64,000 nucleotides of DNA, taken from Planctomycetota bacterium. Lineage in GTDB: Bacteria > Planctomycetota > UBA11346. Shown here piece by piece: positions 15,371-32,735 of the stretch. The stretch covers positions 1-64,000 of the forward strand of contig JBBRLJ010000028.1 of the NCBI GenBank assembly GCA_038231435.1, in the 5' to 3' direction. Both the position numbers and the translations under genes were made by a program. The notes beneath the pieces are model-generated. The model ran no database searches. It had not been told where the DNA came from and saw only the letters and a list, made by a program, of their open reading frames with translations. Every line of letters starts with the position of its first letter. Within the stretch, counting starts at the first letter, position 1.

Positions 15371-15715
15371 CTACCCTCGCTTGCGCAGGTCCAGCCCGAC
15401 CAGCACGGCCTCGGTGTTCGACATATCGCCGATGATCTTGCGCATGGGAGCCGGCAGGTGCCTGACGAGGGTCGGAACCGCCAGGATCTGGGCTCCCTTC
15501 GCCAAACGCGGCTTCACCAGGAGGTCGATCACCTCGATCGAGTACAGGCCCGCCAGATGCTCGTCGCAGATCCTGCGCAGGTTCGCCAACGCCCGCACCG
15601 TCTTCGGAGTCTGTCCGGCGATGTAGAGCAGCATGTTCCACTGCAAGTTCTTCCGCTTCTTATGCGTATTCTTGAGGGGCCTCCGCTTGGCGGGCACGGC
15701 CTTCCTGGCGCTCAT
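15371..15715 (-). CDS. kaiB: Circadian clock protein KaiB family
   Basis: [23 protein letters not shown]...P.LA....[19 protein letters not shown]. Confidence 0.95.
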
Positions 15716-17484
15716 CGGCTCTCCTTCCGGGCGAGCCGCCGATTGCGTCTCACCGAGCGCAGCGTATCGGCGGTGCGCATGGCCGCGATGCGCTGCCGTG
15801 TCGAATCATCGTCGGCCATCCGCTCATCGCTGGCCTTCTGTGCCTGGAGCATCTCGGCACTGTCCGACTCGAGGCTCGCCTGGAGGACGCGGATCTGGGC
15901 TTCGGTGGCCAGGCGCTTGTGCTCGATGGCGCGACGGCGCTTCTCGAATTCTTGGGTCAGGCCGCGCTTATCCTGCCCCTCCCGTGCGCCGCGATCCACG
16001 CGGGCTGAACCCATCAGCACTCCCGACGAGCCCAGGTACACATCCACGAGTTCGATGCCCTTGTCGTTCATGATGAATTCCCGGACCTGGTTGGAGTGGC
16101 GCATGCCGCGCGACTTGACGATCATCAAGCCGCGATTCCGCTCGCCGTCGTGCTCGTACGTGCGCACCATCATCCAGGTGTCCATCAACGAGGATATGGT
16201 GGTCTCGGTCAATTCGAGAGCGCTGCCGCCGAAGGTGAGACTGGTGAAGATGCCGGTGATCTCCTGGTGCTTGAGCATATCGATCAGGCGGGTCAGCATC
16301 GACTTGACCTCGGTCGTCGTCCCCGCGGCGATGAAGTTCGAGATCGGATCGAGGATGACGAGCTCCGGTTTGAATTCGCGTATGGCGTTGGCCATCGTCA
16401 CCAGGTGCATCTCCAGCCCATGGAGCGAAGAGCGCGACGCCAGGATGCGGAGCGTTCCGTTCTGCAGGAAGGGAGCCATGTCGTTGCCGATCGAACGCAT
16501 GTTGCGGACGATCTGGTCGCGGGACTCCTCGAAGGCGAAGTACAGGCACCGTTCGCCGCGTCGGCAGGCGGCCGAGGCCATCCAAGCGGACAAGGTGCTC
16601 TTGCCGGTGCCGGCCGTACCGGAAATGAGGATGCTGCTGCCCTTGAAATACCCCCTGTCGCCGAATATCGTATCGAGGCGCTCGATTCCAGTGGATCGAC
16701 GCTCCGAAGACGCTCCGTGATCCAGCCCGATACCGATCGGGAACACCGAGAACCCGCGATCATCGATGAGGAATGGGAACTCATTGGTCGCGTGCGAGGA
16801 TCCGCGATATTTGACGACCCGCAGGCGGCGCGTGGTGATCTCATCCAGCACCTGGTGATCGAGCAGCACCACGCAATCGGACACGTACTCTTCGATACCG
16901 TAGCGGGTCAGGGCTCCTTGGCCCCGCTCCGCGGTGATCAAGGTGGTGATGCCGCGATCCTTCAGCCAACGGAAGAGGCGGCGCAATTCGGCGCGCAGGA
17001 TCGCCTCGTTCGGCAGCGAGGCGAACAGCACCTCGAGGGTATCCAGCACCAGGCGCTTGGCGCCGATCTGGTCGATCGCCGCGCCCAGCCGCACGAACAG
17101 TCCATCCAGGTCGTATTCGCCTCCGTCGATGACCTCGCTGCGGTCGAGATAGACATGCTCAACGAGCATCTTCTTCTTGCTGACCAGCGACGAGATGTCG
17201 TGGCCGATCGACGCGAGATTCATCGCCAGTTCCTCGGCGGTCTCCTCGAAGGTGAAATAGACGACCGGTTCATTCAATTCCCTCGCCGCATACGCGAGGA
17301 AGTGCATCGCGAACAGGGTTTTCCCCGTACCGGCGGAACCGCAGATCAGCGAGCATCGACCCTTGGGCAGACCGCCGCCGGTGATCTCGTCGAATCCTGG
17401 AACGCCGGTGAGGGCCTTGCGCAGGATGCCGGTAGGGGCTTTGCGCAGCGGGGACGGCAAGGCTAACTTCCGGCGAGTGACCAT
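15712..17484 (-). CDS. kaiC: KaiC (KaiC2-like double RecA-fold ATPase/kinase)
   Basis: Two Walker A motifs ([16 protein letters not shown]), TFEE/AFEE, KYRGS.H, ISSLMDT phosphosite region, coiled-coil tail. Confidence 0.95.
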
Positions 17485-17748
17485 GTGGACAGGCTCCGAT
17501 TCCCCACACCTTTCAAACCGGGGTGCTGACGGGATAAGGAAAAAGGCAGAAGCTTGCGGCATTCCGCAGATCCAAGCCTGCGCGCAGGCTCTTTCAGGTG
17601 CTTGAACGGCGATTGAAGACGAAGCCGCCGAGAAGTAACAGGCGCAGTTGCACCATCGGCCCCAATACCTGGTCTTGTCATCGACCGGGTGTCCAAGGTC
17701 CTTTGCAAGCCGTGCCGGTACGGTAGCGCGCTTCTGTAGCCTCTCACC

Positions 17749-18261
17749 ATGTCTGAGCTGCGCGTGCTGGTTATCGACGACAATCCCGGAGATGTGACGT
17801 TGCTGAGGGAAGCATTCATCGAGAACCACATCCCGTTGGATCTGCTGGTCGCCGAGAACGCCATCCAAGCCTACACGATGATGCGTGATATTCCCGAATC
17901 ACAGGCTCCAGACCTCATCCTCATCGACCTCAATCTTCCCATCATCAAAGGCCAAACCGTGCTGCGAGAATTGCGCGATTTCCATCCCTGGCGCAGATCG
18001 CGCAGGCTGGTGTTCAGCTCTTCGGCCGCCAGTTATGAGATCGACGAATGCATGCGGCTCGGGGCCCACGGGTATCTGGTCAAGCCGGCGCACTTCGCCG
18101 GCTACATCGAACTGGCGCGGCGCCTACGAGGCATGCGCCCGACCAGCGGATCGACCGCGAGACTTCGCACGGAAGCGTCCGTGAGCACGAAGCGGCCCGC
18201 CACGTCGCGGCGTATCCGTGCGACCAACGTCTCCGCCCAGTTCCGACACAACACACCCTGA
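17749..18261 (+). CDS. Single-domain response regulator
   Basis: LVIDDN, LILIDLNLP, FSSS, YLVKP. Confidence 0.85.
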   Translation: MSELRVLVIDDNPGDVTLLREAFIENHIPLDLLVAENAIQAYTMMRDIPESQAPDLILIDLNLPIIKGQTVLRELRDFHPWRRSRRLVFSSSAASYEIDECMRLGAHGYLVKPAHFAGYIELARRLRGMRPTSGSTARLRTEASVSTKRPATSRRIRATNVSAQFRHNTP

Positions 18262-22442: not shown

Positions 22443-23489
22443 CTAACCGACCGCCGCTTCCCCATCTGTCGGATGCACTCGTGAGCGGTCAACGATCCAT
22501 TTCACCCCGCGCCGCACCGCTTCCTTCGCTCGCGCCAGGGCACAGCCGATCGCCGACCCTCCGAAGCGGCCACCCATCGACATCGCGTCCCTCCATCGCC
22601 CGAGATCGAGTTCCAGGCGGGCAAGGATCGGCGACAGGTACGTCGGGATCGCTCCTCGTTTCCCGATCCGCACGATCCGCCCCGTCTGGTCGACCAATTC
22701 CAGGTAGTCGTCGGTCGAGAGTGGGCACGGGCACAGCCGGCTCGTCTTGTCGGACCAGGGCGTGCACGCCTCGAGCGGAGCCAGCCATGATTGGACCAGC
22801 GGTGGATCTGCTGGCGTCGGGATCGCTCCGCTATCGACGAGACGCGCGCCGGCCTTCGCCATCTGACGCTCCTCGATGCGTCGCTGAATGCTCGTCAACT
22901 CGCTCGATTCGGGACGATCGGCTTGCCGCGCTCGGATCAGATTGAGATCCACGTATGCCATGCAGGCGATCACCGCCGCCTGATCGAGCAGCGACACCGA
23001 CGTGAAGCGCCCTTCCCAGAAATGGCCGGTGCAACGGTCCTCGCGATTCGCCCGCCGGGCGATGCGCTCCTTCATCACCTTCATGAACCACGACAGACTC
23101 GACAGGCGGGCCCGATGCTCAGAGACCCATTCCGCATCCGCCGCCTTGCCGTCGAGCCAGCGCAGATCCGGTGGCTTCGGATTCCCGTCGTCGTCCTTCA
23201 GCGGGAACATGACCGCCCAGCGCTCGGCCACCTCGCGACCGGACCACCTCGCGGCGCGGTCGGGATGGACCTTCATCACCAGGTGGAAGTGATTCGACAT
23301 CACCGCGTAGGCGAAGATATCGACGGCGAATACCGTCGCCTGCTCGCGAACGGCTGTTTCGATCCAATCTCGACGATGCGCCCATTGATCACTGCAGAGG
23401 AAGGAGCGACGGACGCAGCGGCTGATGACGTGATAGCAGCCAGGTTGCGTCTGGTCGATCAGATGCGAGCGGGCAGTCGTCATGAGCAC
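22443..23489 (-). CDS. HUH Y1 transposase, REP-associated tyrosine transposase (RAYT)/IS200-like
   Basis: YHVISRCVRR.FL, YAVMSNHFHL (HUH), GHFWEGRF.S, YVDLN. Confidence 0.9.
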   Translation of the reverse strand: MLMTTARSHLIDQTQPGCYHVISRCVRRSFLCSDQWAHRRDWIETAVREQATVFAVDIFAYAVMSNHFHLVMKVHPDRAARWSGREVAERWAVMFPLKDDDGNPKPPDLRWLDGKAADAEWVSEHRARLSSLSWFMKVMKERIARRANREDRCTGHFWEGRFTSVSLLDQAAVIACMAYVDLNLIRARQADRPESSELTSIQRRIEERQMAKAGARLVDSGAIPTPADPPLVQSWLAPLEACTPWSDKTSRLCPCPLSTDDYLELVDQTGRIVRIGKRGAIPTYLSPILARLELDLGRWRDAMSMGGRFGGSAIGCALARAKEAVRRGVKWIVDRSRVHPTDGEAAVG

Positions 23490-23543
23490 GGGATACGGGA
23501 TGGATTATGAGATTGGCGTGAGAACACATGCCTGTCCTAGGAT

Positions 23544-24494
23544 TTGTGTGCCGAGCGATTCATCGCCGTTCAGGACGGGCAGGTGAAGGTGACGACGATC
23601 CAGAAGTACCACTGCCACATTGGCTACTGGTTCACGGTCATCACACCGGGGTCGTCGCCGGCGAGCCTGACAGCCGAGAGCTTGCAGCTGGCCAGGAATG
23701 CACTGGTCAAGCGCATGTCGCCCGTGACGGCGAACTGCGCGCTCTCGACCCTCAAGCGGATCCTGAACTTCGCCTTCTTGGAGGGCTGGCTGACCTCGTC
23801 ACCGTGGAAGCGGGTAAAGAGCCTCCCAGAGCCCGACTTCACGTCGAGCTGGTGGACGCCGGAAGAGGTGGCGGTGGCCCTGCGAGTCGCAGGGCAAAAC
23901 CAACACCAGCCCACGGCCACCCTGATGATCGTGCTCGGCTGCATGCTGGGGCTGCGCAAGGATGAGATGGTCAACCTCCGCTGGCAGGACCTGCTGCTGG
24001 ACCGGCAGGACGAGGCGACTGGAGAGCCACGGCCGGTCTGCCATATCCGCTGTGATGCGGAGTGGCGGCCCAAGTCGGGGAAGGCGCGAGACCTCCCGAT
24101 CCCACCGCAGGCACGTGGCATCCTGCTTCCGCACCGCAAGGCTTCCGGCTACGTCCTAGTGGAGGAGCGGCGGGTGGCGAAGCGGGGCGGCACCAAACGG
24201 GTGTACCGATATGACCCGGACCGGGTTTGGGATCGGATCCGGTCCAAGTGCATCGCTGCAGGCGCGAAGCGCATCCGTTTCCACGACATGCGGCATTCGT
24301 ATGCGTCCATCTTGCTCGACCAAGGCTTCAGTGCCGAGAAGGTCGCCCGATGGCTCGGGCACTCGGACACGCGCATGGTCTTCGGGGTCTATGGGCATCT
24401 GCTCGCATACGACGAGCAGATTGAGGGCGTAAAGTTCACGCGCAGCGCGCAGCCTGACGACAAGCATCTCCTGCGCTTCCCGACTCGCAGCTGA
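23544..24494 (+). CDS. Tyrosine recombinase/phage-type integrase, probably N-terminally truncated
   Basis: GLRKDE (R), PKSGK (K), FHDMRH (HxxR), LGHS, VYGH (Y); no good start or RBS; adjacent to tRNA 3' end. Confidence 0.88.
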   Translation: MCAERFIAVQDGQVKVTTIQKYHCHIGYWFTVITPGSSPASLTAESLQLARNALVKRMSPVTANCALSTLKRILNFAFLEGWLTSSPWKRVKSLPEPDFTSSWWTPEEVAVALRVAGQNQHQPTATLMIVLGCMLGLRKDEMVNLRWQDLLLDRQDEATGEPRPVCHIRCDAEWRPKSGKARDLPIPPQARGILLPHRKASGYVLVEERRVAKRGGTKRVYRYDPDRVWDRIRSKCIAAGAKRIRFHDMRHSYASILLDQGFSAEKVARWLGHSDTRMVFGVYGHLLAYDEQIEGVKFTRSAQPDDKHLLRFPTRS

Positions 24495-24569
24495 TACAAC
24501 TTGCCATGAACGACGTCGTTTGCCGTCCGGAGATCCCGGGCGGCGAACGCGTTTTCTTTACCTATGAGG

Positions 24570-24634
24570 CGTTCGCCCGGATGGGCGAACAAAGGGCGAA
24601 AATGGGCGAACAACGCTGTTAACTTGTTCGCCCA
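24570..24634. repeat. Cluster of TGGGCGAACA-like direct and inverted repeats (putative integrase arm sites)
   Basis: Direct copies at 24582, 24593, 24603; inverted copies at 24570 and 24625. Confidence 0.6.
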
Positions 24635-24635
24635 C

Positions 24636-24675
24636 AAAAAAGAGGTCGCGGTAACTTGCGCTACCGCGACCCTTT
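24636..24675 (-). terminator. Hairpin plus U-tract downstream of tRNA-Asp
   Basis: GGTCGCGGTA/TACCGCGACC stem, followed by a T run on the minus strand. Confidence 0.7.
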
Positions 24676-24678
24676 AGA

Positions 24679-24755
24679 TGGCGACCTGGATGGGACTTGA
24701 ACCCACGACCTCCGCCGTGACAAGGCGGCGCTCTAACCAACTGAGCTACCAGGCC
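24679..24755 (-). tRNA. tRNA-Asp(GTC)
   Basis: GGCCTGGTAGCTCAGTTGG...CCGCC-TTGTCAC-GGCGG...GGTTCAAGTCC...CCA. Confidence 0.97.
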
Positions 24756-24797
24756 ATGATGTGAAAGAGACCTGAGCCGATCCGAATGTCGACGCCC

Positions 24798-24874
24798 TGG
24801 TAGGCGATGAGGGATTCGAACCCCCGACATCCTCCGTGTAAAGGAGGCGCTCTAGCCGACTGAGCTAATCGCCC
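24798..24874 (-). tRNA. tRNA-Val(TAC)
   Basis: GGGCGATTAGCTCAG...CCTCC-TTTACAC-GGAGG...GGTTCGAATCC...CCA. Confidence 0.97.
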
Positions 24875-25025
24875 CTTTACTGGAGGGTTGCGGATTATGA
24901 CTGTGGCATGTGCATGGCAAGGGGAATAGAGTTTCAACATGCTGTGTGGTTCGGGATTAGAGATGGGCTGGTCGAGCTGGCTCCTTGCGGGGCCGCTTCT
25001 CCTAGGATCGGGATGAAGGCCCTCA

Positions 25026-25094
25026 ATCACCAGGCGTAGATATCACCAGGCGTAGGGCGTAAAGAGTAACTCTCCTTTCACACCGCTTTCACAC
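25026..25094. repeat. Direct repeats ATCACCAGGCGTAG x2 and CTTTCACAC x2 in a divergent promoter region
   Basis: 25026-25039/25042-25055 and 25075-25083/25086-25094. Confidence 0.6.
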
Positions 25095-25188: not shown

Positions 25189-27138
25189 GTGGCTGATGCC
25201 GTCATCCACATCGCCGATGGCGAGTCGCACTGCCGCATCGTGGATCCGGTCAGCGGGACTCTGCAAGTCCCCTTGCGTGAGATCAGCCAGCAGGGCGCCC
25301 TGGTCGACACGCGGATGCAGTTCGAGGCCCAGGCGGCGGTCGACCTCACAGTGGTGCTCAAGGGCCTCTCACCGCGGCAGTTCTTCGCCAACGTCGCTTT
25401 CAGCGACAACGCCGGACTCCACCTGCAGTGGATGCCCATCGATTCTGGGGAACAGGCGCGCCTCCACTCGCTGCTCGAGGCTTACAAGACCTTGCATCCG
25501 CCTCAGGCCGCGGCATCCACCGAGGCCGCCGCTCCCGCCCGCGAGAAGACCAACACCCGCCGCGTGATCAGGCCCAAGGGCTTGGCAGCCGATTCCTCGA
25601 GCGCGATCATGCCGTTCACCGACGTATCGACGCCCCCGTCGACGCCGGTGCAGTCTTCAACCCAGTCCTCGTCGCAGCTGGGCTCGGGCGAGCGTGTGCG
25701 CACCCGCCGGATCGTGCGCCCGTCCAACCAGAGCCTGCCGCGGGTTGACGACGCGCCGGCCGATGATGACGCGACAGTCAAGACGACGCCCGCGAAGGGA
25801 GCCAACGGCGACAATACCCCGTCCACCCTGTCGATTTTCCGCGAGGAGACCGGCGCCCAGCGCGTGCTGGACGAGGATTCCGGCGACCACCTCGCGGATA
25901 CCGAACCCAGCACCGGCAAGGCCGGGGTCGTGGGCGCCGACGGGCGCATGGACATCGGCGCCTCGATCCGCAACAAGGCCAAGTCCATCCGCGCTTCCGA
26001 GCTCGCGGCGCGCCACGACCGCGTGCGCGTGCTCAACATGGGCACGATCAAGCAGCTCATCACCGAGGCGGTGGAAGAGGCCTCGGCGCACCTGACGCGC
26101 TCGCTCGGCGCCGAAGACCGCAAGCGCCTGCTCGAGGAAGCTGAAGAGAACTTCAAAGAACGCCTGAAGATGTTCGAGGCGGAAAAGCTCACCGCCGAGG
26201 TGAAGGCCAAGCAGCTGGTCGATCAGCTGCGCACCGCGCAGGATCTGCTCGAGAGCGAGCGCAAGCGCACGGTCAAGGCCGACCAGTTCACGGTGTCGGC
26301 CGCCGGCCTCGACGAGATCGAGCTCAAGTTCAAGCGCCTGCTCGACCATTCCATCGCCGAGGGCCGCGTCATCCCGACTCTCGAGGAAGAGCTGCGTCGC
26401 GTCATCGCGACGGTGTTCGACCAGGAGCGCCAGCGCATCCGCGAGCAGGAGATGCAGGCGCAGAACGAGAAGATCCAGCTGCTCGAGACCAAGATCAAAC
26501 GCCTCGCGAGCTCGCTCGACGAAACCGAGCGCCAGCGCGACGAGATGCAGGAGTGGGCCCAGACGCTCGAGGCATCCGGCGGCGGCGCGTTGCGCAACAT
26601 CATGTCCGCGGGCATACGCGACGATGGCAACAAGAAGCGCAAGATGGCGCTGATGAAGGAGATCCTCGACATCAACCGCGCGATGCGCAAAGAACTCGGC
26701 ATCGAGACCGCCCCGGTCGACGAGGAGACCGAAGAGGCGATCAAGAAGGTCGAGGCCGCATCCAAGCTCACTCCCGAGGAGGAAGCGGCGATCCGCGAGC
26801 AGCGCAAGCGCATCGACCCGCTGCCCGAAGCCAAGAAGCCCGACGCCGAGATGCTCAATGTCATGGCCGAGTCGGGCCATGCGCCGGCGGCTTCCGCCAA
26901 TCCCGATGACGAGCCCTTCGAGGCGGTCGGCACGGTCAAGGCGGCGGCAGGCGTGAAGAAGCTGAGCGCCGAAGGTGCCGAAGAGGTTCCCGAGGGCGCC
27001 GAGATCGACCCCGACGACATGGAGTGGACGCCCGCTGCCAAGGCCGGTCCGGTGACCGGCAACGATTCGGGGATCAAGAAGATCGCCACCACCACCGACT
27101 TCAAACTGCCACCCTTGCAGAAGAAGGGTAAGAAATGA
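25189..27138 (+). CDS. Hypothetical protein: PilZ-like N-terminus, disordered linker, long coiled coil, acidic tail
   Basis: EISQQGA beta-rich N-domain; E/K/R/L-rich helical core; host-like codon usage. Confidence 0.8.
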   Translation: MADAVIHIADGESHCRIVDPVSGTLQVPLREISQQGALVDTRMQFEAQAAVDLTVVLKGLSPRQFFANVAFSDNAGLHLQWMPIDSGEQARLHSLLEAYKTLHPPQAAASTEAAAPAREKTNTRRVIRPKGLAADSSSAIMPFTDVSTPPSTPVQSSTQSSSQLGSGERVRTRRIVRPSNQSLPRVDDAPADDDATVKTTPAKGANGDNTPSTLSIFREETGAQRVLDEDSGDHLADTEPSTGKAGVVGADGRMDIGASIRNKAKSIRASELAARHDRVRVLNMGTIKQLITEAVEEASAHLTRSLGAEDRKRLLEEAEENFKERLKMFEAEKLTAEVKAKQLVDQLRTAQDLLESERKRTVKADQFTVSAAGLDEIELKFKRLLDHSIAEGRVIPTLEEELRRVIATVFDQERQRIREQEMQAQNEKIQLLETKIKRLASSLDETERQRDEMQEWAQTLEASGGGALRNIMSAGIRDDGNKKRKMALMKEILDINRAMRKELGIETAPVDEETEEAIKKVEAASKLTPEEEAAIREQRKRIDPLPEAKKPDAEMLNVMAESGHAPAASANPDDEPFEAVGTVKAAAGVKKLSAEGAEEVPEGAEIDPDDMEWTPAAKAGPVTGNDSGIKKIATTTDFKLPPLQKKGKK

Positions 27139-27275
27139 TGTCCCTGTTCGCGTTGGAGAGGCGAAACCAACCGCCGTGACACTCACCCGACTCCCTGGTC
27201 GTCGATACCTCCCGGTTTCCCCCTTCTCGTCCAAACCCCAACACCAACCATCCCTTTACATTCCAGGAGCTTTCC

Positions 27276-28325
27276 ATGTCTGAAATCGTCTATCTCGGTA
27301 TCGATCTCGGTACCAGCCGCACCTCGATCACCTCGTCCACTGGCGTGCGCGAGACCGTATGGTCGTACGTCGGTTACCCGAAGGACCACGTCGCCAAGAA
27401 GAAGATGGGCGGCCGCGACATCATCTACGGCAAGGAGGCCCTCGAGAATCGCCTCGCGCTGAACCTGTTCCGCCCGCTCGCCGGCGGTTCGATCAAGCAC
27501 AAGGGCGCCAAGGACTCGGGCGAGACCAAGCGCGCGGTCAAGGACCTGCTCGAGCACACCGTCTCGCTCGCCAAGTCGGCGAAGGACGCGACCATCTACG
27601 CGGTCATCGGCGCTCCCGCCGAAGCCAGCGTCGAAGGCAAGGCCACCATCCTCGAAGCCGCCTCGAACTGCATCGATAGCGTGATCGTCTGCTCGGAACC
27701 GTTCGCGGTCGCCTACGGCCTGGACTTCCTCGACGATACCCTGGTGATCGACATCGGCGCGGGCACCACCGACCTCTGCCGCGTCCACGGCACCATGCCC
27801 GGACCGGATGACCAGCGCACCCACGAGATCGCTGGCGACGCCATCGATCAACTGCTGGCCAACCTGATCAAGGAGAAGCACCCCGACGCGCAGTTCTCCA
27901 TCAACATGGTGCGCCAGATCAAGGAGCGTCACGCCTCGGTCAGCCCCAAGATGGACGAGGTCATCGAGGTGCTCCCGGTCGCCGGCAAGCCGACCAAGTT
28001 CGATCTGACCGAGCTGGTCTACAAGGCCTGCTACAGCCTGGTGCCCCCGACGGTCAAGGCCCTGCAAGACCTGGTCGCCACCTACGACCCTGAATTCCAG
28101 GCCAAGATGCGTAACAATGTGCTGCTCGGCGGCGGCGGATCGCAGATCAAGTCGCTCGGCCTCGCCATCGAGAAGGCGCTCGACGAGTACGGCGGCGGCA
28201 AGGTCAAGACCGTCGAGGAACCGCAGTACGCTGGTTCGAACGGCGCGCTCAAGATTGCGCTCGATATGCCCGAGCAGTTCTGGAAAGAGTTCAAGTCGCA
28301 GCGCGGAGCCGCCGCCGCCGGCTGA
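27276..28325 (+). CDS. mamK: MamK-like bacterial actin (MreB/MamK family)
   Basis: LGIDLGTS, VGYPKD, AVIGAPA.AS, SEPFAVAYGLD, DIGAGTTDLC..HGT.PGP.DQ, AGKP, LGGGGSQI, P.QFW; AGGAG RBS; these motifs recall MamK more than MreB, so treat the symbol as mamK-like. Confidence 0.85.
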   Translation: MSEIVYLGIDLGTSRTSITSSTGVRETVWSYVGYPKDHVAKKKMGGRDIIYGKEALENRLALNLFRPLAGGSIKHKGAKDSGETKRAVKDLLEHTVSLAKSAKDATIYAVIGAPAEASVEGKATILEAASNCIDSVIVCSEPFAVAYGLDFLDDTLVIDIGAGTTDLCRVHGTMPGPDDQRTHEIAGDAIDQLLANLIKEKHPDAQFSINMVRQIKERHASVSPKMDEVIEVLPVAGKPTKFDLTELVYKACYSLVPPTVKALQDLVATYDPEFQAKMRNNVLLGGGGSQIKSLGLAIEKALDEYGGGKVKTVEEPQYAGSNGALKIALDMPEQFWKEFKSQRGAAAAG

Positions 28326-28338
28326 ACTGGCAGATGTT

Positions 28339-28386
28339 GTAAAACACAGCAACCCCGCGCGCGAGCGCGGGGTTGCTGTGTTTTAC
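28339..28386 (+). terminator. Intrinsic terminator, 22-bp perfect stem with GCGA loop
   Basis: GTAAAACACAGCAACCCCGCGC-GCGA-GCGCGGGGTTGCTGTGTTTTAC. Confidence 0.88.
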
Positions 28387-28739: not shown

Positions 28740-29624
28740 CTACTTTGCGGCGGGTGCTGGCTGCGGAGTCGCGGGTGCGACGGTCGGGGCCGGCGCGGGA
28801 ACGGGAGCAGGAGCGGCCGCCGTGGCGGGCGCGGCAGCGGACGGGACCGCGATGGGAGCTTGAGGTTCGGCGCCTGTCTGAGCGGCGGGGGGCGCCGCGA
28901 TCGAGGCTGGCGGGGCGTTCTTCTGCGCTGCGGCCTCGGCCTGCTGGCGCTTGAGTGTCCAATACATGGTGCGCGCGACGTTGAGCAGCTCGGTGGCGCC
29001 GGCATCGCTGCGGCCGATCAGCGGCTCGAGCTTGGCCATGGCTTCGTCGGGCTTGCCCGACTTGGTCAGGGTGCGCGCGGCGCCGAGTGTTGCCTCTAGC
29101 TGCTGGCTGAGGAATCGGCCGCCGGCGCTCTCGACCGCGGCGTAGTCCTTCGCGGCAGCCTCAAGATCGTTGAGCTGGTACTCGGCTCCGGCGAGCGTCA
29201 GGCGCGCGGCATACTTGAGCTCCTGGTCGGGAGTCTTGTCCGCCAGTTGCACCGCCTTCTGCGCTGCCTCCTTGGCCCCCGGACCGTCGTCCTTACTGAA
29301 ACGATTCTGCGCGACCTCGATGTAGGCGCGGGCGCGCCAATAGTCGGCGGTCGCGGCGTCCTCGGCGAGTTCCTTCATGGCTATCGCACGGCTGTCCTGA
29401 TCGGACTTCTCGAGCGCGAGATTGAAAGCGGTGGACGAGGCCGCATCAGGCCGCTCGACCGCCCAATGGCGCACGACCTGGGCGACCACGATCACCACCA
29501 CCAGCACGAGTACGTAGATCCACCAGCGGCGCTTGATGCCCTGGGCGAAGGTGTCGAGGCGATCGTAGATCGGATCCGAGTAGCTGGAGGAGGGACCGGC
29601 TTCGGTGAAGGGAGTCTGGGCCAT
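28740..29624 (-). CDS. Membrane-anchored TPR protein (YfgM-like)
   Basis: Single N-terminal TM, Ala-rich helical repeats, Pro/Ala tail. Confidence 0.7.
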   Translation of the reverse strand: MAQTPFTEAGPSSSYSDPIYDRLDTFAQGIKRRWWIYVLVLVVVIVVAQVVRHWAVERPDAASSTAFNLALEKSDQDSRAIAMKELAEDAATADYWRARAYIEVAQNRFSKDDGPGAKEAAQKAVQLADKTPDQELKYAARLTLAGAEYQLNDLEAAAKDYAAVESAGGRFLSQQLEATLGAARTLTKSGKPDEAMAKLEPLIGRSDAGATELLNVARTMYWTLKRQQAEAAAQKNAPPASIAAPPAAQTGAEPQAPIAVPSAAAPATAAAPAPVPAPAPTVAPATPQPAPAAK

Positions 29625-29673
29625 GGTGCTGTGCTCGTTCGTGGCGCGCGGCTGGTTCGAAGTCGTAGGCCGA

Positions 29674-30249
29674 TCACCGCGCCGGTGGCTCTGGCGCGGT
29701 GGCGCCCGGCGCATCCAGCTGGGAGGCTGGAGCGGCCGGGGTGGGCCGGAGGTGGAAACGGATGGTAGTGAGGCCTCCGCTACGTCCAGCCTCGATGAAC
29801 AGGTCCTCGGGGCCCTTGCGCCAGTGGCCGCGAGCGAGCTCGCCCATGCGCTCCCACCCGAGCGGGGGCAGTTCGGAGTCGTAGCGAGCCAGCACCGCCG
29901 AGCCCGGATCGGGACGAGCGCCCTGGCGCTCGATCATCGACACCTCGAAACGCCTCACCGAGCCTCCGGCAAGCGATACCGCGAGCTGGTCCTCACCAGG
30001 GATCAGCTGGTAACCGGCGACCGGGAACAGCGGGATGTCCGGGAAGTGCTCGGGGTGGAAGGCGGGGGGGTGGTAGAGCTGAGAGGGCGAGGGCGCGCGT
30101 TCTTCGCCACCGCATCCGCCGAGGGCCAGGACCGCGGCCAGAACCGACATCGTCGCGGTGAAGGAAGCGGCGGACAGGCCGGACGGGCGCAGGCTGCCGC
30201 GCGGCCCGGGCCAGCATCGGGGGAGGGCCCCCCTACCGGACAACGTCAT
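29674..30249 (-). CDS. Hypothetical lipoprotein
   Basis: Hydrophobic stretch ending LGGC; 4-bp overlap with the FHA gene. Confidence 0.55.
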   Translation of the reverse strand: MTLSGRGALPRCWPGPRGSLRPSGLSAASFTATMSVLAAVLALGGCGGEERAPSPSQLYHPPAFHPEHFPDIPLFPVAGYQLIPGEDQLAVSLAGGSVRRFEVSMIERQGARPDPGSAVLARYDSELPPLGWERMGELARGHWRKGPEDLFIEAGRSGGLTTIRFHLRPTPAAPASQLDAPGATAPEPPAR

Positions 30250-30920
30250 GCCTGCTTGTAGGTGAAGCTGTGGCCAGCAATGGTGATGATGTCTCCGACC
30301 TTGAGGTCGTGGGACGAGATCTTCTGGCCATTGACGCGCACCGAGCGGAAGCCGCCGGACGAGGTGACGCGATGGGTTTCTCCCGCGCGCACGATCTTCG
30401 CCTGGATCGGCTTCACCAGGAAGGCCTTGCAGGGGATGTCCGCGCCGGACTTGCCGATCGAGGTCTCCTCGCGGATCAGCGGCACCACCATCTCGCGTCC
30501 ACCCTGCATCAGGCTCAGGCCCATGCGCTTGGTGGACATGACCTTGGCGAGGGCCGCCTGGTCGACGAACATGGTCATCTCGCCGCCCATGCCGGCCTTC
30601 TTCTTGCCGCCGGCGCCTTCCGATTCGGCCTGGCCGTGCTGGTCGAAGAGCAGGCTGTGCTTGCCGAGGACGATGCGATCCGCGTGTTTCAGCGTGTGGC
30701 GTTTGATCTTCTGACCACCGACGAACGTGCCATTGTTCGATCCGCCGTCGACCACGACCCAGTCGTCGTTCTCCTTGACGATCGTGCAGTGGTGACGAGA
30801 TACGCCGAGGTTGTCCACCACGATCTCGCAATCCATGGCCCGGCCGATTTTGATCTCATCCTTCACAAGGGTATGTTCGGACTCGACGTTCGAACCGAAC
30901 ATAACACTGATCTTGGCCAT
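30246..30920 (-). CDS. FHA-domain protein (two FHA-like domains)
   Basis: IGRA..C.I......VSRHH, GSNNGTFV; second degenerate domain with VRVNGQ..L.VGD.I. Confidence 0.88.
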   Translation of the reverse strand: MAKISVMFGSNVESEHTLVKDEIKIGRAMDCEIVVDNLGVSRHHCTIVKENDDWVVVDGGSNNGTFVGGQKIKRHTLKHADRIVLGKHSLLFDQHGQAESEGAGGKKKAGMGGEMTMFVDQAALAKVMSTKRMGLSLMQGGREMVVPLIREETSIGKSGADIPCKAFLVKPIQAKIVRAGETHRVTSSGGFRSVRVNGQKISSHDLKVGDIITIAGHSFTYKQA

Positions 30921-31049
30921 GATCCGGACTCCTGACGGCTGTGACCATAGATGGCTGCTTGACGGGGTCAACGCAAGGCCTTGCATCCAACCCGGGGGGT
31001 CGTGGACGCCCTTGCGTAACACCGAAACAGGTGTCATGGCGGGACGCCG

Positions 31050-32735
31050 GTGGACTTGAGTTCCCCCCTGCTCCCAGAGACTGCCGGAATGCTCCCGGAT
31101 CGGCAATCGGCGGTGCAATTGGTGGGGCCGGATCGGCTGGAACTCAACCGCGACAAGGCGGTCGTCCAGCCCGGTCCGACGCAGATCCTCGGCAAGGTCG
31201 AATGCGTCGGGCTGTGCTTCTCAGACATGAAACTCCTGCATCAGTTCGACCGGCACCCCCGGAAATCACCCGTGCTGGCCCATCTCGCCGCGGAGGTCCT
31301 GCGGGACATCCCCAGCTACGTACCCGAATCCCGGCCCACGGTGCCTGGCCACGAGGTGGTGATGCGGGTACTCGCGGTGGGCGACCTGGTGACTAGCGTC
31401 AGGCCCGGCGGGCGCTACCTGATCCAGGCGGATTTCCGGGATCTCAAGACCGCGGGGTCGAACGGGGCCTTCGGCTACAATTTCGAGGGCGGTCTGCAGG
31501 AGTACGTCCTGCTCGACGAGCGCGTCACGGTTTCGGCGCACGGCGAAAGCTACCTGCTGCCAGTCCCCGAGGACCGCGGCGCGAGCCAGCTCGCCCTGGT
31601 CGAGCCCTGGGCATGCGTGGAAGATGCCTTCGCGTGCCGCGAACGCACCGGCCTGACCCCCGGCGGCACCCTGCTGCTGGTCTCATCGGCGGGCGCCCAA
31701 CCCGACCTGTCGGGCCTCGATCTCACCCTGCCGGCGCGGCGTCTGTGTTCGGGCCCGGTCTGTCCGCCGGGATTCACCAGTGTGAAGCTCGATCTGCCGG
31801 CGACGCAGACCATCGACGACCTGCTGATCGCCGGTGCCGACGCGGATGACATCGAACGCCTGACCCCCTTCCTCGCCAAGAACGGACTGCTGCTGATCGC
31901 GCGCGGCCCGGGCCGCTTCGGGCGGCAGGTAAGCCTGCCGGTGGGACGGGTGCATTACGGCAACATCCGCGTATCCGCGACCACCAGTTGGCGTTTCGAC
32001 GACGCGCTCGGCGGCATCCCGCGCAGCGGCGAACTGCGCGGCGGCGACCATGTCAACGTGGTCGGCGCCGGCGGACCGATGGGGGTGATGGCGATGGTGC
32101 GCGCCATCACCTCGTCGGCGCGCGGCGCGCTCGTCGAGGGCGGAGTGCGTAATCCAGGCCGCGCAGAGGCGCTGCGGCGCCGCGTCGAGACCGTGGCTCG
32201 CGCGCGCGGCGTGCAGGTACGGCTGTTCAATCCCGAGGCCGAGCCGCCGCGTGGCAGCGTCGACTACTGCTTCCTCATGGCGCCGGTCCCCGCGTTGGTC
32301 GCGCAGGCCGTGGCCGATGCGTCGTCGCGAGGCATCATCAACGTCTTCGCCGGCATCCCCGCCGACATACCCTGCCTACTCGATCTCGACGCTTTCACCG
32401 AAAAGCGCCTCTACTTCATCGGCACCTCGGGCAGCACCATGGAGGACATGCGCGCGGTGCTCGGCAAGGTCCTCGCCGACGAACTCGATACCGACCTGTC
32501 GGTGGGCGCGGTCTCGGGCATGCGCGGCGCCATCGCCGGTCTCGGGGCCGTCCGCGACCGCACCATCGCCGGCAAGATCGTCGTCTACCCAGAGCTCACC
32601 GATCTGCCGCTGCTCGAACTCGATGCCCTGGTCGCCCGTTACCCATCCATCGGTCCCAAGCTCGTCGACGGCTGCTGGACCCGCGCCGCCGAGACCGAAC
32701 TCCTGCGCCTCGCGCAGCCCACGCCAGCGCGCTGA
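31050..32735 (+). CDS. Zn-binding MDR/alcohol dehydrogenase family, L-sorbose-1-phosphate-reductase-like
   Basis: GLCFSDMK, PGHEV, GGLQEY, LVEPWACV, GAGGPMG. Confidence 0.8.
   Translation: MDLSSPLLPETAGMLPDRQSAVQLVGPDRLELNRDKAVVQPGPTQILGKVECVGLCFSDMKLLHQFDRHPRKSPVLAHLAAEVLRDIPSYVPESRPTVPGHEVVMRVLAVGDLVTSVRPGGRYLIQADFRDLKTAGSNGAFGYNFEGGLQEYVLLDERVTVSAHGESYLLPVPEDRGASQLALVEPWACVEDAFACRERTGLTPGGTLLLVSSAGAQPDLSGLDLTLPARRLCSGPVCPPGFTSVKLDLPATQTIDDLLIAGADADDIERLTPFLAKNGLLLIARGPGRFGRQVSLPVGRVHYGNIRVSATTSWRFDDALGGIPRSGELRGGDHVNVVGAGGPMGVMAMVRAITSSARGALVEGGVRNPGRAEALRRRVETVARARGVQVRLFNPEAEPPRGSVDYCFLMAPVPALVAQAVADASSRGIINVFAGIPADIPCLLDLDAFTEKRLYFIGTSGSTMEDMRAVLGKVLADELDTDLSVGAVSGMRGAIAGLGAVRDRTIAGKIVVYPELTDLPLLELDALVARYPSIGPKLVDGCWTRAAETELLRLAQPTPAR

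Follow-up and report, generated by a model that had tools for sequence, protein, structure and literature searches.

The window analysed here comprises 64,000 nucleotides (nt) of contig JBBRLJ010000028.1 (GCA_038231435.1) from a Planctomycetota bacterium, the genome of which we label G000, and it contains two adjacent genes that are the subject of this study: open reading frame A (ORF A), encoding a partner protein with a predicted PilZ-fold head and a long coiled coil, and ORF B, encoding an actin related to MamK (Table 1). Both genes lie on the + strand with a gap of 137 nt between them, and an in-frame alternative start is absent upstream of the GTG of ORF A. A first-pass annotation made from the sequence had noted a strong ribosome-binding site and a terminator here, and both were recovered. 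The AGGAG preceding the actin was kept in seven related loci, and the hairpin behind it had an energy of -44.9 kcal/mol (z -8.3), which was equalled by 0 of 200 shuffled sequences; a simple terminator scan did not pick it up. ORF A and ORF B form a two-gene unit bounded by this terminator.

Table 1. Features of the actin-partner locus, in window positions (aa, amino acids; bp, base pairs; TPR, tetratricopeptide repeat)
Feature	Position	Strand	Details
ORF A, partner protein	25189-27138	+	649 aa, GTG start, GGAG upstream
PilZ-fold head of ORF A (predicted), aa 1-102	25189-25494	+	Pfam, AlphaFold, Foldseek
First TRRxx[RK]P motif of ORF A, aa 123-129, disordered linker	25555-25575	+	
Second TRRxx[RK]P motif of ORF A, aa 172-178	25702-25722	+	
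Helical/coiled-coil core of ORF A, aa 253-505	25945-26703	+	Conserved, defines the family
Amphipathic helix K485-R500 of ORF A, predicted actin-docking element	26641-26688	+	Model and conservation
Acidic stretch of ORF A, aa 509-620	26713-27048	+	25% D/E, poor conservation
C-terminal motifs PDDxxW, G-I-K-K-I and PPL of ORF A, aa 608-643	27010-27117	+	
AGGAG Shine-Dalgarno of actin ORF B	27265-27269	+	6 nt 5' of ATG
ORF B, MamK-related actin, saltatorellin clade	27276-28325	+	349 aa, ATG start
Hairpin, likely bidirectional terminator	28339-28386	.	Perfect 22 bp; TPR gene beyond is convergent

All five MamK-type motifs named by the first-pass annotation were present in ORF B, which was 43% identical to solved MamK in a PDB search and carried xEPx and DxGxG, the MamK forms. 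With the NCBIfam models, ORF B scored 391.7 bits for MamK (NF040964, cut-off 400), 213.6 bits for BeeR (NF053558, cut-off 530) and 46.5 bits for MreB (TIGR00904, cut-off 365.75). Saltatorellin is a MamK-like actin of the FtsZ-less, shape-shifting Saltatorellota, described in 2019 (Wiegand et al., bioRxiv 10.1101/817700). Because saltatorellin itself scored 419.9 on NF040964, the cut-off of 400 does not separate magnetosome from non-magnetosome groups. We located the saltatorellin gene in genome G596 by both published primers flanking it; the protein (P0428) is recorded as 'MamK-like protein, Saltatorellus ferox', and ORF B was 52% identical to it over 340 aa. G000 shares a phylum with G596, and together with the labels of close homologs this marks its host as a planctomycete.

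In MreB-rooted trees (FastTree with 135 sequences and IQ-TREE in fast mode with 69 sequences), ORF B and saltatorellin fell into one clade (FastTree 0.982; Shimodaira-Hasegawa-like approximate likelihood ratio test, 98.1), the named magnetosome MamK proteins (P0344, P0309 and P0294) formed a separate branch and BeeR-like proteins also lay outside, with weak deeper nodes. This grouping apart from MamK, BeeR and MreB agrees with the earlier proposal of a non-magnetosome actin that is not MreB. The same proposal had called the actin an orphan, which does not hold, since ORF B belongs to a clade described in 2019. Three other identities were rejected: Mad28, which has SxGxG at phosphate-2 and xExx at connect-1 where MamK has DxGxG and xEPx (PMC10653835) and of which ORF B carries the MamK forms; BeeR, in view of the score, an actin fold starting from residue 5 and the separate clade; and MreB, in view of the score and the trees. 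We also observed a MamK-like actin clade (P0269-P0295) with N-terminal extensions of 170-880 residues, and P0309 is an FtsZ-MamK fusion record.

Within the saltatorellin clade, the sub-clade of ORF B was distinct (support 100, internal identity 65-96%). ORF B is not a one-to-one orthologue in the Saltatorellus lineage but falls in a sister sub-clade, and its host family is absent from the list of families for the saltatorellin host's order; since one genome (G128) carried both types of actin, the two may be paralogs. On these sequence comparisons, ORF B is a sister variant of saltatorellin and not a new kind of protein. Saltatorellin filaments were seen in Escherichia coli and M. gryphiswaldense (bioRxiv 10.1101/817700), and by analogy with saltatorellin and MamK, ORF B likely forms filaments with ATP. 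In the phylum sample, 145 of the 401 genomes had relatives of ORF B (E 1e-40), and among the 23 from the host's own family 20 did; these relatives fell into two tiers of identity (~65-90% and ~50-59%).

The actin is an addition to the usual one in its host. In G000, which is 87.6% complete, canonical MreB was encoded on contig C35 (460 bits) and MreC on C17, neither of them in the window, and MreB was found in 380/401 genomes, so that the ORF B type is not an MreB substitute. No match to tubulin/FtsZ was found in this 87.6% complete genome, and ORF B is a second actin beside MreB in a planctomycete genome without an FtsZ match. The window held no mam or mreCD genes, as had been annotated, and a magnetosome island was not seen elsewhere in G000 either: with models run without a positive control genome, and with MamE and MamO outside the search, the best matches were below cut-off for MamA (57 of 200 bits), MamB (102.5 of 350), MamM (95.5 of 350), MamP (31 of 300) and MamQ (74.5 of 250, matched stretch only), and MamI had no match. 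Above-cut-off matches of the same models numbered 0 in 41 genomes for MamB and 0 in 25 for both MamP and MamA. Flagellin was not found in G000, nor was GvpA, for which the control also gave no match; 2 strong GGDEF matches and 5 PilT-family ATPase matches were found.

The head of ORF A scored 22.2 bits against the Pfam PilZ model (cut-off 22.5), was modelled by AlphaFold with a predicted local distance difference test score (pLDDT) of ~95 and had the PilZ domain of Alg44 as its top Foldseek match (E 2e-6); it is predicted to be a complete PilZ beta-barrel. As the first reading had it, the N-terminal RxxxR is absent, and this motif preceded the barrel in only 4 of 100 homologs. At the second PilZ motif ([D/N]hSxxG position) ORF A has E-I-S-Q-Q-G, and among 102 homologs E31 was kept in 96, the serine position held S in 47 and G in 44, and G36 was kept in 97. 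A PilZ head of this kind probably works via protein contacts or via non-canonical binding of cyclic di-GMP (c-di-GMP). The head is followed by a disordered linker and by long helices at residues ~284-502 in the AlphaFold model, in line with the long coiled coil annotated before, and 94 of the 102 close homologs carried two to three copies of TRRxx[RK]P.

The acidic tail that had been described was recovered as an acidic region (mean 25% D/E among 102 homologs), but not as the terminus, as the last 29 residues are basic (24% K/R) and the acidic stretch is sub-terminal. Of 19 loci examined throughout the close clade, only two, both of the same type as the window locus, had it together with TRRxx[RK]P, and most distant partners lacked it; judged from these sequences, the tail is lineage-specific. 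PDDxxW, G-I-K-K-I and PPL were near-invariant among the 102 homologs, and the I-K-K-I and polyproline pattern presumably recalls WH2/profilin-binding motifs, as a candidate only. No membrane helix was found in ORF A. Its core had 186 homologs and no specific match in Pfam, NCBIfam, PDB or ESM Atlas: the PDB profile search returned generic coiled coils only (E 0.03 or worse), ESM Atlas gave no usable match (best 0.86, unnamed) and the best VIA-align Z of 9.7 on long helices was uninformative. A search with a profile of the partner (A3) returned 14 proteins under limits on word and length, and the range described here is that within the Planctomycetes-Verrucomicrobia-Chlamydiae (PVC) superphylum.

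We found that this partner family is a conserved companion of saltatorellin-clade actins and is co-conserved with them family-wide, as had been supposed for the two genes. Of the 47 close loci, 8 with less than 700 bp upstream were left out; among the 39 scored, 38 had a partner homolog within 300 bp upstream of the actin on the same strand, and the 39th had one directly downstream, with a profile iterated on these same loci. A profile made from close homologs alone was applied to 37 distant loci that had been held out from its construction and contained 44-161 ORFs each. In 29 of these, among them the saltatorellin locus, it ranked first the ORF that lies upstream of the actin in the same orientation (24 at E<0.1). 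It missed eight: the four loci of family f54 (L109-L111 and L123), L114, L115, L118 and a copy in divergent orientation. Across the 401 genomes, both genes were found in 129, the actin only in 16, the partner only in 17 and neither in 239, counts in which kin are not independent and for which the A3 profile was built from some of the same genomes. Some partner copies sit away from the actin gene, and the neighbourhood of the pair shows no recurrent cargo gene. The kind of actin was already known (saltatorellin in 2019; BeeR, PMC11929497), whereas for the partner family and its docking helix we found no description in the open-access literature, and the accessible part of the saltatorellin preprint (bioRxiv 10.1101/817700) mentions no partner gene.

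A direct contact between the two proteins, as implied by the filament-adaptor pairing of the first-pass annotation, was predicted by a complex model of ORF B(1-343) and ORF A(412-508), each given as an alignment, with a score of 0.78 against 0.00 for the best control. Among reference pairs, 116 of 157 solved ones and 2 of 215 mismatched ones attained the mark applied to such models, counts that are only a rough guide for our own alignments. The runs shared at least 59% of contacts with a partner pLDDT of at least 66. Confident contacts in the model were made by K485, L488, M489, I492, L493, N496, M499 and R500 of the partner with residues 137-139, 147-153, 172-174 and 327-340 of the actin, and the contacting K485, M489, I492, N496 and R500 are the most conserved residues of the partner family and lie on one helix face. 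By motif register, the actin contacts would include the equivalents of the hydrophobic groove. The helix K485-R500 is predicted to dock in the groove between subdomains IA and IIA of ORF B. In other actins, the hydrophobic groove is used by arcadin-2, ParR, WH2 and cofilin (Izore et al., PMC5173319).

All partners have in common a coiled coil, after which come G-x-x-D-P and the helix with K485 (74 of 77 sequences) and N496 (76 of 77), counts that are inflated by profile selection. Because saltatorellin's partner consists of this C-terminal module only, the module is the minimal shared unit. In front of it, the heads have been swapped across lineages. PilZ-fold heads in the close clade were judged by eye in several members, with weak Pfam matches. 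Heads in family f5 are GGDEF-like, with GG[DE]EF in 0 of 8 inspected and RxxD kept in 4 of 8. All 6 Verrucomicrobia copies of the upstream type carried FimV_core above cut-off, together with a hydrophobic helix that is probably membrane-spanning from its sequence, and some partners had no head at all. A gene for a tyrosine-autokinase-like ATPase preceded the pair in 12 of 40 loci (L085-L124), although not at the window locus.

Two further observations concern these fusions. The Verrucomicrobia loci from metagenome-assembled genomes (L020, L021, L025, L026, L028 and L029) encode an actin 74% identical to ORF B, which was probably acquired from planctomycetes, and two partner homologs, one carrying FimV_core together with the hydrophobic helix, the other immediately downstream and basic at its N-terminus. 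The saltatorellin locus has the partner module twice: the additional copy (L127:14768-15856), some 5 kb 3' of the saltatorellin gene, is fused to a degenerate GGDEF with RxxD.

We propose that the partner docks via its C-terminal helix in the actin groove and anchors or regulates the filament, and that its head links the filament to signals or to the pole, a reading held with about as much confidence as doubt. ORF B would form ATP-dependent filaments, and the docked helix of ORF A would act on filament ends or monomers. Dimerisation of the coiled coil could present two helices, as in ParR-type adaptors, and the head, here of the PilZ fold, may set the place or time at which the filament is held. 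The output would be to arrange the pole or envelope in space, for shape change, motility by pili or division without FtsZ, and not to align an organelle. FimV is a polar landmark, and PilZ proteins without RxxxR act through contacts with PilB and FimX, and this agrees with an anchor at the envelope or pole. In a bolder and improbable version, the actin cytoskeleton would be signal-gated: a portable groove-binding helix, fused on separate occasions to sensors of c-di-GMP (PilZ or a dead GGDEF with an I-site) or to FimV, or encoded behind a tyrosine-kinase-like ATPase, would control nucleation or capping of saltatorellin-type filaments and drive the amoeboid shape-shifting of FtsZ-less Planctomycetota, and the PilZ barrel here would borrow its missing RxxxR from the downstream TRRxx[RK]P, as a rearranged c-di-GMP site.

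Several points weigh against the anchor/regulator reading. The binding of ORF A to ORF B is a model and not a measurement, and a passing score could stem from resemblance to actin-helix complexes of known structure. An edge strand (137-139) and the helix 119-126 beside the groove are among the top contacts, so that side binding is possible. Interface conservation in actins with and without a partner was 0.81 versus 0.74 in the close clade and 0.53 versus 0.55 in the saltatorellin clade, a comparison in which the set without a partner is partly mis-assigned. The f54 actins had no adjoining partner in 4 of 4 loci; partner-like matches elsewhere in their genomes covered profile positions up to ~205 only and hence lack the docking helix. 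All 25 genomes searched for PilT had it, whether or not they carry the actin, so that pili are not specifically implicated, the FimV fusion is restricted to one lineage, and no phenotype is known for any family member.

The first-pass annotation had drawn an analogy to MamJ and supposed that the pair positions some other cargo. In such a scheme the partner would bind filament sides and connect them to an organelle or granule other than a magnetosome, which would account for the acidic stretch with its mean of 25% D/E in 102 homologs and for the predicted direct binding; MamK acts together with adaptors of the MamJ type and with coiled-coil Mad proteins (PMC10653835, PMC12748827). We nevertheless consider this tether unlikely, as the acidic tail is present in a part of the family only and absent from most distant partners, the predicted contact is made by the conserved amphipathic helix and not by the tail, and ORF A has no membrane helix. 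The NCBIfam Mam/Mad models gave no match to ORF A (the presence of a MamJ model among them is unchecked), the surroundings of the pair have no cargo gene in common, and the heads fused to the partner suggest signalling or an anchor at the pole. With the acidic tail lineage-specific, the anchor/regulator reading is the stronger of the two.

The long helices of ORF A would also suit a self-assembling coiled-coil protein, similar to intermediate filaments, that is co-expressed with the actin and does not bind it stably, and the 17 genomes with partner-like matches but no actin, as well as the copies away from the actin gene, are in keeping with this. The score of the complex model, the invariant residues, which share one face of the helix at the interface of the model, and the adjacency of the genes, which persists across families although all else is swapped, make it distinctly improbable. 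A DNA segregation system of type II, in which a ParR-like partner binds a centromere and guides a ParM-like actin spindle in a cell without an FtsZ match, would share with the locus the two-gene unit of actin and adaptor and a predicted groove-binding helix. It appears very unlikely, however: no centromere-like array was found in the upstream, intergenic and downstream regions, where the sole repeat, of 14 bp in two copies, is absent from 13 of 13 relatives; Pfam, PDB hidden Markov model and structure searches gave no ribbon-helix-helix or DNA-binding match, with the N-terminal core (A3 residues 1-54) hardly reached by the fold search; signalling or membrane domains make up the heads; and tblastn against 72,556 plasmids gave no match at E 1e-20. 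Finally, the idea that the pair belongs to a magnetosome gene cluster or is left over from one can practically be dismissed, for although the MamK score is nearly at the cut-off, the genome is only 87.6% complete and magnetotactic Planctomycetota exist (PMC12713370), the mam genes searched were below cut-off in G000, as were MamB in 41 genomes and MamP and MamA in 25 (without a positive control genome), ORF B did not group with the named magnetosome MamK and its relatives occur in 145 of 401 genomes.

Under the anchor/regulator reading, the pair resembles several known systems in part. Saltatorellin from S. ferox Poly30 shares with ORF B the supported clade, the coexistence with MreB in an FtsZ-less planctomycete and the partner module encoded directly upstream, but it has an N-terminal extension of ~20 aa and belongs to the other sub-clade, and its partner lacks the PilZ head and the acidic tail. 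MamK with MamJ or Mad coiled-coil proteins (PDB 5JYG, 5LJV) is similar in the actin sequence and in being encoded with coiled-coil or acidic partners, whereas the pair here lies in a separate clade without magnetosome genes found and with a partner that matches none of the scanned Mam/Mad models. ParM-ParR and crenactin-arcadin-2 (PMC5173319) likewise have an adaptor gene beside the actin and a C-terminal helix in the hydrophobic groove, which is predicted here; no sequence similarity, parC array or DNA-binding domain was detected at our locus, and ORF A differs from ParR and arcadin-2 in its long coiled coil and swappable heads. BeeR of the Verrucomicrobiota, a three-stranded actin (PMC11929497, PDB 8R2N), is another non-magnetosome MamK relative in the PVC superphylum, but it has a disordered N-terminal extension of 30-50 aa that ORF B lacks, and it belongs to a separate clade. 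PA2960 and Xac1133, PilZ adaptors without RxxxR that bind PilB and FimX (bioRxiv 10.1101/814665), suggest that the head of ORF A is probably a protein-interaction module; unlike them, it has a barrel predicted to be complete, a retained E-x-S/G-x-x-G, tandem TRRxx[RK]P motifs after it and a fused coiled coil predicted to dock on actin.

Saltatorellin was proposed as a driver of shape change in FtsZ-less planctomycetes, with no regulator named in the accessible part of the preprint (bioRxiv 10.1101/817700). What is gained here is a family-wide partner with a predicted 16-residue docking helix that carries two near-invariant residues, and the natural fusions and the neighbouring ATPase gene hint at inputs from c-di-GMP, pole anchoring and a tyrosine kinase. 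The role of non-magnetosome MamK relatives becomes testable in this way, and if the groove binding is true, the pair would join ParR and arcadin-2 as another prokaryotic example of regulators that use this hot spot of actin.

Other features were noted in the neighbourhood. A TGTGTGG box, a possible regulator site, lies 5' of ORF A at 24943-24949. Of 13 related upstream regions, 8 had a similar box, which in four cases stood 34 nt before a TTGA..TATA promoter-like site. The two-copy direct repeat of 14 bp occupies 25026-25055. Beyond the terminator, a convergent TPR gene and an FHA-domain gene are located at 28740-31118, with the same neighbours in 9 and 7 related loci, respectively. On the other side, a Y1 (IS200-like) transposase (22443-23489) and a tyrosine integrase (PF00589; 23544-24874) beside tRNA-Asp and tRNA-Val were found, and this stretch (22443-24874) is likely the edge of an integrated element. 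Further upstream, at 15371-17868, a KaiC-like ATPase gene and a small KaiB-like gene were assigned by eye.

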